Part shown: positions 1 to 39,690 of the stretch, in pieces
Layout of the letters: each line of letters begins with the position of its first letter
Numbering within the stretch: the first letter of the stretch is position 1
Origin: a virus
Taxonomy: Duplodnaviria > Caudoviricetes
DNA: 41,376 nucleotides
Reading direction: 5' to 3' (one strand)
IMG/VR virus record: IMGVR_UViG_3300012890_000079
Span: 1-41,376 of that record
Made by a program: the position numbers and the translations under genes
The notes under the pieces: model-generated
Database searches by the model: none
Told to the model about the DNA's origin: nothing
Seen by the model: the letters and a program-made list of their open reading frames with translations, nothing else

Positions 1-420
1 CTATTTCCAATTAATAATAAGCAAGTAGCAGGCAGCTCCTACACTAAGCCCCCACACCACCGCCCGCACCCGCTCGGCGGGCCAGCCCAGCCGCGCCGCC
101 ACCCATTGCAGGGCGCGGTCGCTGGCCGCCGTGCGCCCGACGGCGAAAGGGCGGTCGCCGGCGGCCAGGTTCAGCACGGGGTCGAAGAGCAGCAGGCGGG
201 CTAGTCCCGCTATGATGCCGTGAGTTATGACATAATGCGGGGCCAGACATAGCACAACTACCAACGGCAGGAAGTAGAGCAGCGTCAGAAGCCAGTGCAG
301 CGCGAAGGCCTGGCGCTTCGCCTCGGCCCCCGGTGGCGTGCGTCGGATGGCGCTCATCAACCAACCTTGTCCCCAAGCCATTAACAGTACAGCCACAGGC
401 CAGTATAGATAAGTTATCAT
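1..420 (-). CDS. Multi-TM membrane protein of the lysis region; first 22 codons supplied by HNH cassette 1
   Basis: 139 aa with several hydrophobic segments; ATGA overlap with the HNH stop. Confidence 0.8.
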
Positions 421-989
421 AGCAATGCTTTTCGAGCTTTAGCGGCAGCTTTAGTTGCCTTGCGGCACGTTTTGCAGATTCTGCCAGATTTGACCAGGTA
501 TGTATTTTCAGGCGTGTACTCGTGGCCTTTGGCGCAGTGTGTCCATTCGTCGCGGCCGTTTCGATGGCGCCCCTTAGCCATTTTGTCGGCCACGTTATCA
601 GCATTGGTGCCTTGGAAAAGGTGGGCGGGGTTAACACATTTTGGGTTGTCGCATTGATGACAAACCTGTAGCGCCTCATCGATGCCACCATTTGCCCATT
701 CATAAGAAAGCCGATGCGCCTTCATGTTTTCATTGGCAAGGAGGAAGCAGCCGTAGCCCCACTCATTAACTCCGGCTGTCCACTCCCAGCACGCACCAGC
801 CGGGCCTAGGCCCAGCGTTTTGTCAACCTTCTCCCAGAATCGTTCCTGCACCATTTTCTTTGGCAACGGCCCTCGGCTACGTCGTAGATTATGACAGATG
901 CGGCAATTGCGTTTGCCGCCCTGCACCATTGTATTCACGGCCGTGAATTCGTGGCCATGAATACAATGCGTTTTGAGTGCGTTCTTCAT
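417..989 (-). CDS. Free-standing HNH homing endonuclease with Cys/His zinc-finger-like modules at both ends
   Basis: RFWEKVDK...CWEW...GYG...AHRLSY...[15 protein letters not shown]...N motif; THCxxGHE(F/Y)TxxNT...CxxC twice; start taken at MKNAL. Confidence 0.9.
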
Positions 990-999
990 TGCTTGGCGA

Positions 1000-1341
1000 C
1001 TATTTGCGCACGAGACGAGCAAGAAAATCTACTTCGTAAGGCTTGCCAAAGACCGGCGTAGTGAGGTAGCTATCGCCTAGATTGCGCTCGATGCCTTTGC
1101 CAAATGAGCCACCGTCCAACGCCTTGCTGTTACCCTGCCAGGATACCGAGTAGGTGAAGCAGCTATTGGTATTGCGCGAATAGCGGAAGATAAATTGCTT
1201 CCCCTGCACCCGAGCCCCGCCATCGGCATCACACTTGCCTTTTAGGATGGTTTTTACCTTGGTTAGGTCAGTGGTGCCGAAGGTGGCTTTCAGGTCAGCT
1301 TTGATGGCGGCTTGTAGTTGGGCGGTGGTGCAGGTTGTCAT
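1000..1341 (-). CDS. Hypothetical protein (cassette cargo)
   Basis: 113-aa ORF with a TATATTTG promoter element upstream. Confidence 0.75.
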
Positions 1342-1374
1342 GGCGATGTGATTTTGTTTGTGATTTTAACGTCA

Positions 1375-1382
1375 CAAATATA
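1375..1382 (-). promoter_or_regulatory. Bacteroidota -7 promoter element for the 113-aa ORF/HNH
   Basis: Minus-strand TATATTTG matches TAnnTTTG in an AT-rich intergenic region. Confidence 0.65.
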
Positions 1383-1460
1383 ATACAGGTCTCGCCTTTA
1401 TCAAGTATTTTTAATGTGATTTAAAAATAATTTTTAATCACAATGTAAATGGGTCTGGCA

Positions 1461-1468
1461 TACCTTTG
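1461..1468 (+). promoter_or_regulatory. Bacteroidota -7 promoter element for the small regulator
   Basis: TACCTTTG followed by ATG at 1473. Confidence 0.7.
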
Positions 1469-1472
1469 TGCC

Positions 1473-1649
1473 ATGACAGAACCTATTAAGAGAGGCAAGG
1501 GGCGGCCTGCCGTTGCTGAGGCCAACAAGAAGCGAAACCGCGCCATCTCCCTCACAGATGCTGAATATGAGCGACTGGTGCAGCTTGCTGTGGAGGCGGG
1601 CGAACCTGGTCCTAGCTCTTTTCTAGTTAAGAAGCTCAAGCTCTCTTAG
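1473..1649 (+). CDS. Small DNA-binding protein (GRP motif, ribbon-helix-helix-like)
   Basis: KRGKGRP...RAISLTDAEYERL; divergent from the cargo ORF. Confidence 0.7.
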   Translation: MTEPIKRGKGRPAVAEANKKRNRAISLTDAEYERLVQLAVEAGEPGPSSFLVKKLKLS

Positions 1650-1715
1650 CATGAGCAGGCCCTGGGCCCAGGCCATCAGCAGCACGGCGGCCGGCCAGTA
1701 GAGGGTGGCCAGCAC
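1623..1715 (-). pseudogene. Stranded original N-terminus of the 1..420 gene
   Basis: GTG start overlaps the upstream TAG; encodes (V)LATLYWPAAVLLMAWAQGLLM then unrelated LRELELLN-stop. Confidence 0.8.
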
Positions 1716-1867
1716 TAGGCTTGTGGCTTTTTACGGCCAGCGGCCCAGATGAGCAGGCAGGCCAGCGAAATGACACCGTACACTACCACGGCCCATGGCG
1801 CGACGAAACGGTAAATGGGGTACGACATGCCGACCCAGACGAGAAATGCAACTACGAGGTACTTCAT
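1715..1867 (-). CDS. Small 2-TM membrane protein (holin-like candidate)
   Basis: 50 aa MKYLVVAFLVWVG...GRKKPQA, two hydrophobic segments and a basic tail. Confidence 0.65.
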   Translation of the reverse strand: MKYLVVAFLVWVGMSYPIYRFVAPWAVVVYGVISLACLLIWAAGRKKPQA

Positions 1868-9964: not shown

Positions 9965-10417
9965 ATGAAAAACTTGTTACTCAGCTTGCTGCTGCTGCTG
10001 ATAGGATTTGGCAATGCCTCAGCCCAGTCTGCTTCTTATCCGCTTAAAAAGGCCAGCGTTATTGTGGTGCGCACCGATGACAGCCTAGCAGTTGCTTATA
10101 ATAAATTAGCTCGGGCTCTGGTAGCAGCTGGGTACGGGATTGAGAAAAGCGATAAAGACATTGCCTATATTCAAACCATCCCACTGGCTACGGCTGAGCG
10201 CAAAGCGGTATCAGTTGGAACTCGCATTGCCTTGTTAAGGCAACCTCAATGCACCGCAATTGAAATTCGGGGCACCTATTTCATTGATACTCCGCTCGGC
10301 ACGCCAATAAAGAATATTGGGCAAGGCGGAAGTGCCACGCAGGCTGCCTGGAATGCGTTGGAGCGGGTTGCCAGGCTTTATCCAGGTGGTATAATCGCCT
10401 ACCGGGTAGAGCCCTAA
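9965..10417 (+). CDS. Secreted protein, antisense moron (superinfection-exclusion candidate)
   Basis: Signal peptide MKNLLLSLLLLLIGFGNASAQ; AT-rich; opposite strand inside the tail operon. Confidence 0.8.
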   Translation: MKNLLLSLLLLLIGFGNASAQSASYPLKKASVIVVRTDDSLAVAYNKLARALVAAGYGIEKSDKDIAYIQTIPLATAERKAVSVGTRIALLRQPQCTAIEIRGTYFIDTPLGTPIKNIGQGGSATQAAWNALERVARLYPGGIIAYRVEP

Positions 10418-24071: not shown

Positions 24072-24350
24072 TTAGTGCGGACTTGTGATGATGGCAATGG
24101 CCTGGTCCACGGTGTAGACGATGTGGTACTTGGAGCCCCGCCAGCTGTCTCGAAACTCGGCCTCGCCGGGGGTGAGCTTGTCCTTCTCGGTGGCTTTTAT
24201 CTCCATCAGGAAGGTGCGGCCGCGGTAGCCGACGAGCAGGTCGAATGCGTTTTTCAGGACGTGGCAATGCAAAACCGAAGCGCCGATACCGCGCAATGCT
24301 CGCACGATATCGGCCTGGTTTGCATCCGCTCGGGATGCCATTCGGAGCAT
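24072..24350 (-). CDS. VRR-NUC-like PD-(D/E)XK nuclease; N-terminus supplied by HNH cassette 2
   Basis: DANQ...FDLLVGYRG...MEIK...KLTPGE. Confidence 0.85.
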   Translation of the reverse strand: MLRMASRADANQADIVRALRGIGASVLHCHVLKNAFDLLVGYRGRTFLMEIKATEKDKLTPGEAEFRDSWRGSKYHIVYTVDQAIAIITSPH

Positions 24351-24592
24351 TATGACTTTGGTTTGTGCAGATATTGGCGCAGACTCGACAAAGGCAGCCT
24401 ACCACTGAATACTCTGCCGGTAGCTACATCTTCCAAAGTGTAGTGCGTAGCGTAGCCCACACCACAATGCTGTCGAACAGAAGCATGCACCTTAAAAAGT
24501 TTACCTGGTAAATAAGTTGGAGAGGTAGATTTTGGCTTGCCCTCAAGCAAGGCCCCGATTTTCATGTCGGTATATTCTAGTTTTCTTTTCAT
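24350..24592 (-). CDS. Hypothetical protein (cassette cargo)
   Basis: 80 aa, AT-rich, TAATG coupling to the nuclease. Confidence 0.65.
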   Translation of the reverse strand: MKRKLEYTDMKIGALLEGKPKSTSPTYLPGKLFKVHASVRQHCGVGYATHYTLEDVATGRVFSGRLPLSSLRQYLHKPKS

Positions 24593-24595
24593 GTC

Positions 24596-25015
24596 CTAAG
24601 CAGCGTGACGGGCGCGGTATTCTCGCCCACGGTTTTGGTGACAGGTTTTGCACTGGCGGCTGTTGCCGTAGCGGTAGATGTTCTCCTCGGTGAGCGGGTG
24701 ACCATGCTTGCACTCGGTTTTCACCGTGTTGCGGTGCCGACCCGCCTCAGCCATGTCGGCCATGTTATCAGCCTGCGTGCCGAGCACGAGGTGGGCGGGG
24801 TTGACGCATGCCCGGTTGTGGCAGGTGTGGCGCACCACTTGGCCGTCGGGAATGGGGCCGTGGGCAAGCTTGTAGGCCACACGGTGAGCACCATCCGCCT
24901 TGCCTTCATGCCAGGCGCGGCCATAACCCTCTGTGCTTATTTGACGAGTCCAGTTCCAGCAGGTATCGGTCTTTTCTGCCTGCGCCCAAAAGGGGTTTTG
25001 AATGTTGATTTCCAT
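24596..25015 (-). CDS. Free-standing HNH homing endonuclease
   Basis: FWAQAEK..CWNW...AHRVAY...[15 protein letters not shown]...CKHGH...CKTC. Confidence 0.9.
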   Translation of the reverse strand: MEINIQNPFWAQAEKTDTCWNWTRQISTEGYGRAWHEGKADGAHRVAYKLAHGPIPDGQVVRHTCHNRACVNPAHLVLGTQADNMADMAEAGRHRNTVKTECKHGHPLTEENIYRYGNSRQCKTCHQNRGREYRARHAA

Positions 25016-25042
25016 GCTATAATTTACGAATTAAAATGCAGA

Positions 25043-25162
25043 TTAACAAGTAATTATAAAACAGTTCTTGAGCTGGTGCAGGTGTAGGACGGTGGCGCCA
25101 ATAGCCCGCAACGCTTTCACGATTGCGGGCTGGTTGGCATCGACCTTGGCGGCGGTGCGCAT
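25043..25162 (-). pseudogene. Stranded original N-terminus of the VRR-NUC-like gene
   Basis: [35 protein letters not shown] then IITC-stop; TAATG coupling to the upstream gene. Confidence 0.85.
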
Positions 25163-25437
25163 TAGGTTCGTTGGCTGGCCAGATTCAGTATCTGAGGCAG
25201 CGCATCGGTGAGCGCATCCCGGAAGTCCTCATTGCCGCGCGCCGCGATAAGCAGCGCCTGCACTAGGTGGTCCGGCGTGCCGCAAATGCGGGCGCTGCTG
25301 TTGGGGGTATTGCGCGGGTCTACTGTGAGCACGAGCGCAGAGGGCATTAGGTGGTCAGCAACTGTATCCTCGTGGTCATCACACCACTCGCTCAATTCTT
25401 GGAAGGCTTCGTTCAGGGCTGCAATAGCTGGTATCAT
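25162..25437 (-). CDS. Hypothetical protein
   Basis: Start MIPAIAAL by ATGA overlap with the HNH stop. Confidence 0.65.
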
Positions 25438-25976
25438 TTGCTTGGGGTGGCCGTAGCCGTTGAGGGTGAAGAAATACACGAGCAGATGCCGCAAGTCCCC
25501 TCGCAGTAAGGGGTAGTGCTATCGCGGCGACGAGCGCGGAAAGCATGGGTGCCGGCCAGATTGCAGGTTTTACACACCCGATATGGAGCCCGGCCAGGCC
25601 TGTGTCGCAGGACGGTATTCTCAGGCGTGAACTCATGCCCGTGCTTGCAATGCGTTTGCTGCTGCTTGGCCGCCCGACCCTTCTGGGTCATATCCTCGGA
25701 GTTCTGTTTTGGAGTGCCCAGGAATAGGTGAGCGGGATTGACGCAAGCCCTGTTGTCGCACTTGTGGCAGACCAATAAGCCGGGTGAGATGGGGCCAATA
25801 TTCAGTTCATATGAAGCTCTGGGCGCTTTCAGCATCTTGCCATTTAGGTTGATGACGCCGTAGCCGTTGCTTACCAAGCTTTGAGTCCAGACCCAGCAGT
25901 CGCCAGCAGGCCCATGCCCATCTGCCTTATCTACTTTGGCCCAGAAACGAGCCTCAAACGTTGCGCTGTTATCCAT
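25434..25976 (-). CDS. Free-standing HNH homing endonuclease (cassette 3)
   Basis: RFWAKVDK...CWVW...[15 protein letters not shown]...[14 protein letters not shown]...CKTC. Confidence 0.9.
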
Positions 25977-25977
25977 T

Positions 25978-26484
25978 TTAGGCTTCTGATTGAGGTGATA
26001 ATGATTCGCACTGGCCGTTGCAGTAGGGCGCGGGCACTGGGCTGGCCGAGAGCGGAAACTGTGCCTCGGCCTCCGTGGGCACCTCCCACAGCGAGAGCTT
26101 GCCCTTGCAGGGGATGGGCGTGGCGAAGGGCTGCACGTGGCTCAGTGCCCACGCTACTCGCCCATTGGAGTAGTCGCCGCAGGCTAGCTCTACCTCACCG
26201 AGCACGAGGTTCCACGTCTCATCCATCTTGTGCATCTCATCGACTGAGCACATACCCAGGACGGCGCCGCGCGGGAGCGTGTCGAAGGTGAGATTGTGCT
26301 GGGCTAGGATGCTGGAAATGATGGGGTCGGTTTCGCACACCTCGCGGGCCCAGGCCGGCTTACCAGCGCTGGCGGCGATGGCCAGTGGCCCCCGATGCGT
26401 GGTACCCCACGAGCGGGTTTCGTACTCTTTGTAGCCCAGCATGATGAGCGTGGCCCATGGCTGGAGTAGGCTAATGGCTTTCAT
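25978..26484 (-). CDS. ASCH-domain protein
   Basis: [36 protein letters not shown]...KGKLSLW. Confidence 0.9.
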
Positions 26485-26755: not shown

Positions 26756-27193
26756 CTATTTGCCGCTCACCAGCAGCCGGTACGTGTCGAGTTGCAGCCG
26801 GCCCAGGTTGATGCCTGTTTGCGTGAGGTTATTGATGGCGTTGGCCTCCTCGACTTTGGCCGTGCCGGCAACCACACGCTCCGTAGTGGCCATCACGAGG
26901 CCGAAGAGCTTCTCGAAATTGTCGGCCATGCCCGGGGGCAGGGCCGGCAGTTGCGGCTCGTACCTGATAGTGCCCGGCACCGTGGCCGGCGGCTCCACCT
27001 CGTTCCAATCCGCCATTTCCTCCCAGCACTTTTCCACCGAGCACGTGAAGTGGCTCAGGTGCGTGGCGTAGATGACGAGGCTGCCTTTGACTTCGAAGCT
27101 GCGAAACTGGTGCAGCGAGGAGTCGGGGCGGTACTTGAACCATTTGTGGATGCGGGGCCCAATGAGGGCGGCGGGCGAATCGTTTTTATGCAT
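26756..27193 (-). CDS. Hypothetical phage protein
   Basis: 145 aa with a helical C-terminus (EEANAINNL...GINLGRLQL). Confidence 0.7.
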   Translation of the reverse strand: MHKNDSPAALIGPRIHKWFKYRPDSSLHQFRSFEVKGSLVIYATHLSHFTCSVEKCWEEMADWNEVEPPATVPGTIRYEPQLPALPPGMADNFEKLFGLVMATTERVVAGTAKVEEANAINNLTQTGINLGRLQLDTYRLLVSGK

Positions 27194-27815
27194 GGCGTGA
27201 GGGGGTAGTGCGAAGCGCACGTTGTAGCAGCAGTTGGGCGCGCTTCAGGTTGATGAGGGAGGGATGGGCCTGGAAAAGGCGGGCCTGCGCCTGACGTGCA
27301 GCTTGGGTGGTGGCGAGGCGGCGGTCGACTAGCGTGGTGGCCACGTAGCGGTCGGATAGGTCACGCCCCCCGCTGGGGCCGCTGACAACTGCCTCGGCCG
27401 TAGGCACTAGTTGTAGGTTGTTGAGGGCGTAGTGGCTGCGGTCTGAGTCGCGGTGAATGACCTTGTAGCCGGCGGGCACCGCGCCGTAGGCCTGCTCCCA
27501 GAAATGCCGGCCAGCGCGCTTCCACTTGCCGTCTACCTTGACCTGGGCGATGGGCCGCCCGCGCGACTCCCAGACGCGCACCTCCCCGGCGGCCGCTTTG
27601 CAGTGGACCGGCACGGGCCGGGGCGTGCCGCGCAGGCGCAGCTCGTCGCGCAGGTAAGCATGCAGGCTGCCGTGCGCCACCCCCAGCTGCCGCGCCTGCG
27701 CGGCGATGCTCAGCAGTTGCGTAGCAGGCGTGCGCAGCCATTGCGTGACGGTCGGGGTGCGTAGCCAGGCGATAGGGCTGGTGTCCAGGGGCTTTCCCAG
27801 GGTCGGAGTAAGCAT
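27186..27815 (-). CDS. Divergent HNH_3-like protein
   Basis: RHFWEQAYGAVPAGYKVIHRDSDRSHYALNNLQLV. Confidence 0.65.
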   Translation of the reverse strand: MLTPTLGKPLDTSPIAWLRTPTVTQWLRTPATQLLSIAAQARQLGVAHGSLHAYLRDELRLRGTPRPVPVHCKAAAGEVRVWESRGRPIAQVKVDGKWKRAGRHFWEQAYGAVPAGYKVIHRDSDRSHYALNNLQLVPTAEAVVSGPSGGRDLSDRYVATTLVDRRLATTQAARQAQARLFQAHPSLINLKRAQLLLQRALRTTPSRHA

Positions 27816-27825
27816 CTTGTGTTGG

Positions 27826-28020
27826 CTAGGCCGCTTGAGGTGGATAGTTGAGAGTTTTGCGCTGGGCACGGGCGGTGGCTTCGGCTTCAGCCAGCTCCAG
27901 GCCTGGCCCGCCGCGGCGGTGGTAGTAGCCGAGGAGCGCCTCGAAGCGGGCGCCGTCGGCCTGGCGTAGCTCGCGGCGCACGGCCACGGCCATGCGCTTG
28001 CTGTAGGCCTCGGTGCTCAT
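27826..28020 (-). CDS. Hypothetical protein
   Basis: 64 aa; TGATG coupling to the helicase. Confidence 0.6.
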   Translation of the reverse strand: MSTEAYSKRMAVAVRRELRQADGARFEALLGYYHRRGGPGLELAEAEATARAQRKTLNYPPQAA

Positions 28021-29545: not shown

Positions 29546-30547
29546 CTAGATGATGGGTTGCTGCTGCGCGGTGGCAGCGGTTTTGATATTGAGCTTGGCC
29601 TGGGTAGGCGGGGGCAGCGGCTGGCCGGGGCCGGCAGGTCGGGCCTGCACCTGGGCAGCGATGGCGGGCCAGGTGCAGCTGCACCACACGCCGTTGGTGT
29701 AGGGGCCATCCGGATGCTGCGGGTCGCCTAGCCAGTCAGCCAGCTTGTGGGCCCGCACCCCGGGCCGCATGTGGCCCGCCTGGTAGCCGGCCACCTGGTT
29801 GCGCAACTCGGCGAGCTTGCCCTGCTGGGCTTGGTACTTGGCCAAGGCGTAGAGTCGGCTCCAGCCGGGAAAGCCCTGCTGCTCCGAAAAGCCCCACATT
29901 TGGCCCATCTGCGTAGCGAGTGCCTTGACTTCAGTCAGCAGCGCTGCCGGTAGCTCGGCAGCCGCCACGGGCCGGGACTCGGCAGCGTGGGGGGGCTCCG
30001 CAACGGGGGGCACTAACTCTGAAATTTTGGCGGGCAGAGGGGCGGCAGTTATTTCCTCCGCAGCCTCGCCCACACACGCACTCGCGGGAAGGGTGTGGTC
30101 TTTTCTATTCTTGTCTTGTCTATTCCTTATAGGTGGGGAATTTTTCCCCTTATCTTCAGCCAATTCCGGAAAGTCGTGGGGAATTTTTCCCCTTACATCT
30201 CCCTCTTCTGGCTGCTCCTGTGGGGAATTTTTCCCCATACTTCCGACCCATTTAGCGGCCGGCTCATAGTTCAAATGCCACTCTCCGGAGCGACTTGTAT
30301 CCCCGCTGTAGTGGCGAATCAGGCCCCGCTCCTCAAGTGTTGCCACCGCCGAGGGCAAGGTTTTTTTGTCGATGCGCAGGTCGGCATATACCTGTGAGGC
30401 CCGGCGGTAGAGCTTGCTGGGCCAGTGCACCGGGCGGGCGCGGTTGAACTCGTTGAGCAGATAGAAATAGAGCTTGCTGGCCGCCGGCGCAATCGTGCGC
30501 TCGGCGTCCAGTTGCCAGAATTGCTCAAGTAGTTCGAAATAGGACAT
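29546..30547 (-). CDS. Phage replication initiator (N-terminal winged HTH)
   Basis: KLYFYLLNEFN...LEERGLI; internal iterons; upstream of dnaB. Confidence 0.8.
   Translation of the reverse strand: MSYFELLEQFWQLDAERTIAPAASKLYFYLLNEFNRARPVHWPSKLYRRASQVYADLRIDKKTLPSAVATLEERGLIRHYSGDTSRSGEWHLNYEPAAKWVGSMGKNSPQEQPEEGDVRGKIPHDFPELAEDKGKNSPPIRNRQDKNRKDHTLPASACVGEAAEEITAAPLPAKISELVPPVAEPPHAAESRPVAAAELPAALLTEVKALATQMGQMWGFSEQQGFPGWSRLYALAKYQAQQGKLAELRNQVAGYQAGHMRPGVRAHKLADWLGDPQHPDGPYTNGVWCSCTWPAIAAQVQARPAGPGQPLPPPTQAKLNIKTAATAQQQPII
30133..30236. repeat. Three palindromic iterons (probable origin)
   Basis: GTGGGGAATTTTTCCCC at 30133, 30176 and 30220 (43-44 bp period). Confidence 0.8.
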
Positions 30548-38610: not shown

Positions 38611-39186
38611 TTAGCCCACGTACTTAGCCACGGTACTGGCCGAGATGCCCATCGCCTTGCCGATGGCGTAGTTCGACATGCCCCCGCCCTTCAGCCGGCG
38701 AATCTGCTCGATTTGCTCCTGGCTCTTACCAGGTGTGCCGAGCTTGACGCCGGCGGCCTTCTTCTTGGCCAGCGCCGCCTTGGTGTTTTCGGAAATCTTA
38801 ATCAAATCCTGAGCCGCAATGGTGGCCAGCATCGACACTATCACGTCGCCGAAGGGGCCGAGGCTGTCGAGGTAGGGTTCGGTGAATGATTTATAATTCA
38901 CACCATGGTCTTTCAGCTCCTTCAGGTAGCGGAGCGTGGCCAGGGCACCCTCTCGGCTGAAGCGGTCGAGGCGCCAGAACACGACCAGGTCAAACTTCTT
39001 CTGGTAGGCCTCGAGCAGCAGGGCCTTGAATTCCGCGCGGTCGGCCTTGCTGCCCGACTCCTGGTCGGTAAATACTTTATAGATGGTGCCGTGACGCTCG
39101 GCAAACTCGCGGAGCTGGTGGAGCTGATTGTCGGTATCCTGGCCCTTATCCTTCGTCGACACCCGGGCGTAAATAGCTACTCTCAC
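38611..39186 (-). CDS. Small serine recombinase (resolvase/invertase)
   Basis: YARVST...SG...RLDRFSR; C-terminal HTH. Confidence 0.95.
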   Translation of the reverse strand: MRVAIYARVSTKDKGQDTDNQLHQLREFAERHGTIYKVFTDQESGSKADRAEFKALLLEAYQKKFDLVVFWRLDRFSREGALATLRYLKELKDHGVNYKSFTEPYLDSLGPFGDVIVSMLATIAAQDLIKISENTKAALAKKKAAGVKLGTPGKSQEQIEQIRRLKGGGMSNYAIGKAMGISASTVAKYVG

Positions 39187-39536
39187 TCGGCTCTACTTTT
39201 TTTTAACATCCCAACCGCAGTACTGCATTTCTATTGATAATGGCTCAACGATTATCTCTGAAAAGTTCTCGCGATAGCTGGCCCGTAGCTTTGCAAATAG
39301 CTCAGGACTGTTGGCTCGGAAGAACCATTGCGAGAATGATTCCTTCCGCGGCTCAGGGTTTCCGTTAGGCTGTGCGCACAGCCATTCACTATAATTTTGA
39401 GCAGGTGGCCAGAGGAACGAGGCTGCCCATTCGTAAAAGCAAGTGCGCCCCGTGCGCAGCACGTGTCCTGGCGCGGCGCAAACCAGACCCGTCCGAATAT
39501 TTCTCATACCCGAAAATACCATCCAAAAAAGGGTAT

Positions 39537-39674
39537 CGAAAAACACCCCCAAAAACCTGCGTTCTTGGGGGTGTTTTCGTGCTTCGTGTAATAGTCCAGA
39601 AAACGGTCGTATTCTGGATGAATTTTCCAGACGCGAAAACAGCCCGGAAACGCAGGTTTTCCGGGCTGTTTTCG
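39537..39674. repeat. Cluster of palindromes, res-site-like
   Basis: Inverted repeats at 39537-39579, 39595-39618 and 39634-39674 upstream of the resolvase. Confidence 0.6.
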
Positions 39675-39690
39675 TGCACCGTTTTTTGGA

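Follow-up and report, generated by a model that had tools for sequence, protein, structure and literature searches.

Several described systems bear on genes that are entered by selfish endonucleases. In fungal mitochondria, mORFs make gene hybrids, as described for atp6 of Allomyces macrogynus and for atp6, atp9, cox2, and nad3 of Glomus (PMC3630166). In phage T4, the MobA element resides in topoisomerase gene 39/60 and carries a replacement region, HomR, in which polymorphisms alone are reported to leave nicking unblocked (bioRxiv 10.1101/2022.08.31.505936). Free-standing members of the I-HmuI-like group of HNH endonucleases have been described in Skunavirus (PMC12724721) and as the mob genes of T4 (PMC2988022), and Arc homologues are described as adjoining homing endonuclease genes (bioRxiv 10.64898/2026.09.24.754181).

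Here, we analyze a locus in a viral stretch of 41.4 kb, referred to in full as the window. In this locus, an insert of 1.3 kb separates the native head of a membrane-protein gene, left stranded upstream, from the gene body, which has acquired a diverged in-frame replacement head. Related phages have empty alleles of the gene, and the position of the break is the edge of its most conserved motif. We consider it probable that the insert is a splice-free homing cassette that interrupts the gene after codon 22.

The two heads of a membrane-protein gene

The window is prophage-like in its gene content: its minus strand carries HK97-type head, tail, terminase, and replication genes. The parent contig (L011) continues beyond position 1 with small genes and then a 443-aa ORF, which we read as a putative integrase-like gene, and the membrane-protein gene (1 to 420, minus strand; 139 aa, composed of new head and body) is the last gene before this prophage end. 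The initial annotation had placed it in the lysis region, a label that the gene order makes plausible but that no family match backs: neither Pfam nor PHROG gave a match, and the Atlas returned unnamed viral clusters only. A Hymenobacter-type host is our guess, since the named homologues of the protein are mainly from Hymenobacter. The restored frame is open and full-length and aligns end to end with its homologues; in the protein collection, the gene is present only from residue 22 onward. The native operon context is marked by a 50-aa gene upstream (1715 to 1867, minus strand), the stop codon of which overlaps the old start. No terminator-like site was found in positions 1 to 2000, and therefore read-through from the upstream operon is possible.

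Other features of the window were recorded alongside. Three 33-nt direct repeats with a spacing of 43–44 nt, each beginning with a short palindrome, are found at 30133–30252 in a gene upstream of the helicase gene, and these are possibly replication-origin iterons. At 39522–39690, inverted arms of 42 nt and a direct repeat of 40 nt lie upstream of a resolvase gene (38611–39186). Between two tail genes, on the opposite strand and with a lower GC content, is a 150-aa ORF without a family match (9965–10417, plus strand), a possible accessory gene.

The replacement head, codons 1–22, is located at 355 to 420 (minus strand), and its ATG overlaps the stop codon of the endonuclease gene (ATGA). The stranded head, 22 codons and 1 nt, is located at 1649 to 1715 (minus strand), and its frame continues into the insert up to a stop at 1623–1625, which gives a 30-aa peptide. 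As the initial annotation had stated, the codon-aligned heads are of equal length, with identity at 15 of 21 non-start residues. Both measure 66 nt and align without gaps, and 41/66 nt are identical. The next best ungapped match to the head anywhere in the window reaches only 32/66 nt and 7/21 residues, so the duplication cannot be put down to chance. Run X1, an independent assembly that may derive from the same sample, has one contig that covers 295–1894, including both junctions, with zero differences; run X2 contained a small share of the window and diverged pieces only.

The codon changes that had been listed as mostly directed towards A/T are also real. All six are present, and there are nine synonymous differences in the 11 degenerate shared codons, eight of which go to third-base A/T; the GC3 count is 22/22 in the old head versus 10/22 in the new head (Fisher p = 6e-5). 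We set aside an AT-rich donor as the cause of this shift and prefer to read it as synonymous divergence that has reached saturation, starting from an allele with GC-ending codons, since synonymous change from a head in which 22/22 codons end in G or C tends towards A/T. The first codons of three native genes of the same phage, with GC3 counts of 7–11/22, are A/T-rich as well.

Comparison with relatives indicates which head is native. The old head matches its counterparts in relatives L012 and L014 at 60/66 and 59/66 nt, respectively, and the new head matches both at 39–45/66 nt. In L014, the same upstream gene with the same TAG/GTG overlap is followed by an old-type head that is joined straight to the body. 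Among the 66 homologues that could be compared (72 hits, less 3 without an anchor and 3 that were too short), the old head is the nearer one for 48 and the new head for 6, and 12 tie. Similarity of the body correlates with similarity of the old head (rho 0.30, p 0.014), and for the new head rho is 0.005. Measured against 15 distinct DNA relatives, the synonymous difference is 125/147 (0.85) for the new head and 41/170 (0.24) for the old head, with 83/150 (0.55) for codons 23–34, 55/181 (0.30) for codons 35–52, and 140/336 further into the body, where the overall range of 0.30–0.42 is ordinary; the heads of the relatives differ among themselves by 0.25–0.54 each. Therefore, only the new head and, in part, the next dozen codons are foreign. 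A new-type head was not found in any relative, the best match among L001–L020 being 45/66 nt. Judged from these comparisons, the stranded head (1715–1649) is the original start of the gene. Since homologues carry the old head joined to the same body, it does not come from an unrelated gene, and the earlier proposal, in which the replacement head is a diverged copy brought by the insertion of a cassette, is supported by both the alleles of the relatives and the synonymous differences.

The exact 22-codon swap of the initial annotation does not hold, as the foreign piece enters codon 23. Residue 23 is Ser (AGC) in the window and Pro in 66 of the 68 anchorable homologues (72 hits, less 3 without an anchor and the window's own record), and codon 23 is CCN in 15/15 distinct DNA relatives and AGC in 0/15. 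The transition zone (codons 23–34; 319 to 354, minus strand) is thus foreign through codon 23 at least, and, by the sequence, the foreign piece probably extends to codon 26, a CGA that is common to 0/15 of the DNA relatives. Its overlap with the break is at least 2 nt and probably about 11–35 nt. On the other side, the C at 1649 continues the old head and fits a Pro codon, and therefore the old head measures 67 nt. The same C is the last base of the regulator stop codon, so the insert boundary that had been placed exactly at this stop does lie at the TAG (1647–1649), except that its last base is probably host DNA. The join that had been proposed for related genomes was not recovered, as a scan for either join returned two viral contigs that both read ATG CCG GCC ATC, and empty alleles read ATG-CCN-GCC, not ATG-AGC-GCC. 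Run X1 contains a related contig with an empty allele, with the joint 330 to 1671. The break coincides with the start of the most conserved nine-residue segment of the protein, which begins at residue 23 and ranks first of 131. Conserved sites are favored by homing nucleases.

Genes and promoter region of the insert

Counted from the break, the insert begins with a plus-strand gene of 58 aa and continues with a spacer of 131 bp, a 113-aa ORF, and the 190-aa HNH gene. The GC3 of these three genes is 0.55–0.63 versus 0.78–0.85 in most neighboring genes (0.70 in the 50-aa upstream gene). The HNH endonuclease gene (417 to 989, minus strand) is intact, with its frame open to a TTG at 1022, and was assigned by Pfam (HNH_3, E 1.3e-8, 34.7 bits against a cut-off of 24.8) and PHROG (phrog_826, E 1.5e-51). 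In the protein, a central HNH_3 domain lies between two Cys/His modules that are predicted to bind zinc; the His/Asn motif is intact, and the motif columns 111–132 are conserved over 51 sequences. A search of the sequence against the PDB gave no match. The structure model (pLDDT 90) has I-HmuI (1u3e) as its top structural match, with a middling Z of 8.0 and an rmsd of 2.7 over 83 aligned residues, tied with I-PpoI at Z 7.4 (Foldseek E 8e-3). On this model, the enzyme appears to be I-HmuI-like. The cargo ORF (1000 to 1341, minus strand; 113 aa) has one homologue besides itself, 57% identical, and as a query it gave matches in 0/165 genus genomes.

The 58-aa gene (1473 to 1649, plus strand), the stop codon of which ends on the junction base, is ribbon-helix-helix-like and encodes a predicted repressor. 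Its family was found in 14/165 genus genomes and, at weak E-values, matches the Pfam NikA-like family in 14/15 aligned members and RHH_7 in 6/15; the protein of the window itself matches RHH_7 with E 0.011, below the cut-off, and the list of fold matches is headed by ribbon-helix-helix proteins with Z of at most 3.5. Between this gene and the cargo ORF is an A/T-rich two-way promoter region (1342 to 1472), in which TAnnTTTG, the Bacteroidetes -7 promoter consensus as described in PMC6847099, occurs at 1382–1375 on the minus strand and at 1461–1468 on the plus strand. The spacer also contains TGTGATTT repeats at 1347, 1359, and 1415, with an inverted near copy at 1435–1442, which are candidate operators; the window has three exact copies, all in the spacer. 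Neither TAnnTTTG (11 observed versus 10.8 expected) nor the TGTGATTT motif is enriched window-wide, and the evidence for the promoter is therefore its conserved position. In the loci of the regulator family, TAnnTTTG lies 12–15 nt before the start in 11/15 cases (12 nt in the window) and a divergent TAnnTTTG lies 86–97 nt away in 10/15 (90 nt in the window). We consider it likely that the insert carries its own repressor switch.

The best genus matches of the regulator and of the HNH protein are found together in one genome (G133:C76), where some 2 kb separates them and the genes diverge as they do here; this module has no duplicated gene end. The corresponding locus (L157; G133:C76:18000–20400) consists of a regulator, a two-way promoter, three ORFs, and then a 402-aa HNH gene with extra Cys/His repeats, which adjoins a long A/T-rich gene with, judged by eye, a resemblance to TIR genes.

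A second copy of the cassette was searched for in 274 family genomes without any long match; only short ones of about 30–100 nt were obtained, and the three that were inspected turned out to be other genes or chance. The new-head motif was found in 0 viral contigs, and in loci L001–L020 the DNA of the insert matched nothing save the parent contig. Only one copy was thus found, among the few close relatives available, and spread at this site is therefore hypothetical.

Duplicated gene ends beside related HNH genes

The flanks of related HNH genes were surveyed for the same layout. Related HNH genes occur at 354 viral loci, of which 80 were listed, and 76 of these, some of them near duplicates, had enough flank; duplications were scored on masked, composition-adjusted sequence over 1.3 kb upstream and 0.7 kb downstream. 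At a threshold of at least 28 bits, 5/76 listed loci contain a duplicated gene end versus 1/139 control placements within the same loci, and the tested flanks of the other 71/76 contain none. The single control is a long pair with 29% identity, and at 25 bits the controls rise to 4/139. The five cases comprise three heads (L079, L042, and L025) and two tails (L023 and L043), with 62–76% DNA identity between the copies. One has a spacing of 1,288 nt, and the others are smaller, at 616–915 nt. In the genus genomes, duplicated ends were found at 3/16 loci, two of which are again L023 and L025, and the third, a tail, is new (L168).

The targets of these duplications were as follows. In L023 (2129–4133; same prophage as L164), the HNH gene is convergent with a putative lysin gene on the opposite strand, and at least the last 39 codons of the putative lysin are duplicated across it, a tail-type cassette. 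In L168 (3105–4080; G148:C54), a 19-codon tail of a probable integrase gene is duplicated on either side of the related HNH gene. The head and tail duplications in L079 (2298–3700), L042 (2826–3530), and L043 (2860–3580) accompany related HNH genes in unrelated phages; the target in L043 has a VRR-NUC match, and L079 contains extra ORFs.

The window itself contains a second cassette (24072–25162, minus strand) in a small resolvase-like gene, with a stranded head of 35 codons and a replacement head. The old head runs from 25162, followed by an HNH gene (25015–24596), an 80-aa ORF, and the new head from 24350, and no match to the regulator family was found in it. The break falls directly before a conserved Asp of the resolvase-like gene, and in L025 the same gene is interrupted nine codons earlier by another related HNH gene. 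Here, the divergence of the two heads is alike (new 0.43 versus old 0.42), and near copies of the new head (87–93/105 nt) occur in the HNH-free phages L173, L178, and L180. Recoding is therefore not a general rule. These HNH-free near copies may be donor alleles, or scars after loss of a cassette.

Two further HNH genes are present on the minus strand of the window. For the third HNH_3 gene (25434–26020), a PYC-G-C peptide ends both the upstream gene and the HNH frame, and this repeat (around 26020 and 25510) was considered as a third, tail-type cassette; this candidate is unsupported, the one close relative (L180) having an unrelated tail. The fourth HNH_3-type gene (27186–27869) belongs to a different PHROG family, and has a host-like GC3 and no duplicated flank.

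Origin of the insert and comparison with described systems

If the insert is a homing cassette, the nuclease would nick or cut empty alleles near codons 20–34, and repair would use the upstream genes together with the old head as one homology arm, on the left, and the gene body as the other, on the right. With the old head serving as an arm, the stranded head would stay a normal allele without decay while the internal head diverges. Homing would also account for selection that keeps 15/21 residues in a new head that is otherwise saturated with synonymous differences. The divergence between the heads would make it harder for the site to be cut again and for the two heads to recombine with loss of the cassette. 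As polymorphisms in the replacement region of MobA are reported not to block nicking on their own, immunity here may rest on the split site and not on the altered codons. The ribbon-helix-helix-like protein would repress the two-way promoter, so that the lysogen makes little or no nuclease, and translation of the host gene would now be coupled to that of the nuclease gene.

As the main alternative, the insert could stem from a one-off mosaic recombination that brought in another phage's regulator, ORF, HNH gene, and own allele of the membrane gene. One crossover, illegitimate, would then have fallen within the old head and a second, homologous, a short way downstream, and the HNH gene would be a passenger that does not target this gene. 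That this cassette was found once, with no second copy in 274 family genomes and no new-head motif in the viral contigs, is in line with such an event, as is the frequency of modules made of a regulator, a promoter, and a variable ORF (14/165 genus genomes), one of which ends in a related HNH gene without a duplicated end; moreover, the second head of cassette 2 resembles alleles of HNH-free phages. However, both junctions lie within about 12 codons of one point in the gene, at its most conserved motif, the new-type head is far from every relative (0.85 by synonymous difference), and the layout recurs at related HNH genes in unrelated targets. We regard the mosaic origin as unlikely.

Homing might also have come in two steps, with a small cassette of HNH gene and head arriving first and the regulator and the 113-aa ORF entering later between the old head and the HNH gene, in which case the repressor would control the cargo and would not be part of the homing unit. 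The smaller size of the other cases, the lack of a regulator-family match in cassette 2, and the finding that, in most loci with a member of the regulator family, the divergent ORF is of another kind speak for this sequence of events, but the best regulator and HNH matches share a single 2-kb module in G133, the insert genes are similar in GC3, and the insert showed no remnant of a second junction, which makes two steps quite improbable in our view. The equal length and direct orientation of the heads would also be expected if a transposon-like insertion had made a 66-bp target-site duplication and one copy had drifted since. This explanation is largely refuted by the direction of divergence, since the working copy is the diverged one (25/66 nt) and the stranded copy is the normal allele; in addition, the differences extend past the break, no transposase match was obtained, and no terminal inverted repeats are listed at the ends of the insert, so that we give it hardly any credence.

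More broadly, and returning to the homing cassette, we put forward tentatively that one family of phage HNH nucleases, those with Cys/His modules, enters genes as a matter of routine and needs neither intron nor intein to do so, at conserved motifs near either end and with a diverged spare head or tail, and that the present cassette in addition has a repressor switch, which keeps the nuclease silent during lysogeny and now governs expression of the repaired gene.

If this is correct, it would provide a third way, besides introns and inteins, for selfish nucleases to reside inside phage genes and would make hybrid genes. The cut site would be predictable from the conserved codons at the break, so that sequence data would suffice to assemble a set of small HNH nickases whose targets can be guessed. 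Orphan gene starts and mis-called start codons would also be accounted for. In the open-access literature searched, no phage gene with both a stranded and a replacement head was found described.

Compared with the I-HmuI-like HNH enzymes (1u3e), the nuclease shares the HNH_3 domain and the free-standing position beside phage genes, and I-HmuI is the top, though middling, match of its model. Small Cys/His modules flank its nuclease domain on both sides, and its gene, instead of occupying an intron or an intergenic gap, is placed within a coding sequence that has a replacement start. The IS605 Arc-like ribbon-helix-helix repressors likewise have a small gene that faces a nuclease across a two-way promoter; in our locus there is no match to TnpA or TnpB, and the ribbon-helix-helix assignment comes from weak sequence and fold matches. 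MobA with HomR is also an HNH element in a conserved coding region that brings a diverged copy of codons (67–81% DNA identity), which in its case surround the nick site. With MobA, 55–75 nt are deleted, the target protein becomes two functional subunits, and a ribosomal bypass is added, whereas our locus lacks a bypass, keeps the displaced part as a stranded head, and again encodes a single full-length protein; nor is there a split topoisomerase target with terminal extensions, the target being a 139-aa membrane gene that is restored as one uninterrupted frame. The mORFs share with our locus an endonuclease gene in a coding gene with a foreign, diverged terminus, the absence of splicing, and a stranded native terminus that is nearer to relatives. 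They differ in that they occupy 3' ends in mitochondria and encode LAGLIDADG or GIY-YIG enzymes, whereas here it is the 5' end of a phage gene and an HNH enzyme, and the insert has a predicted promoter, a predicted repressor, and a cargo ORF. The cassette works like the mORFs and like MobA with HomR but is a member of neither group, differing from the mORFs in being N-terminal, HNH-based, and from a phage. Since fungal mitochondria and T4 MobA already provide examples of the principle, the locus broadens a known kind of element and does not open a new one.
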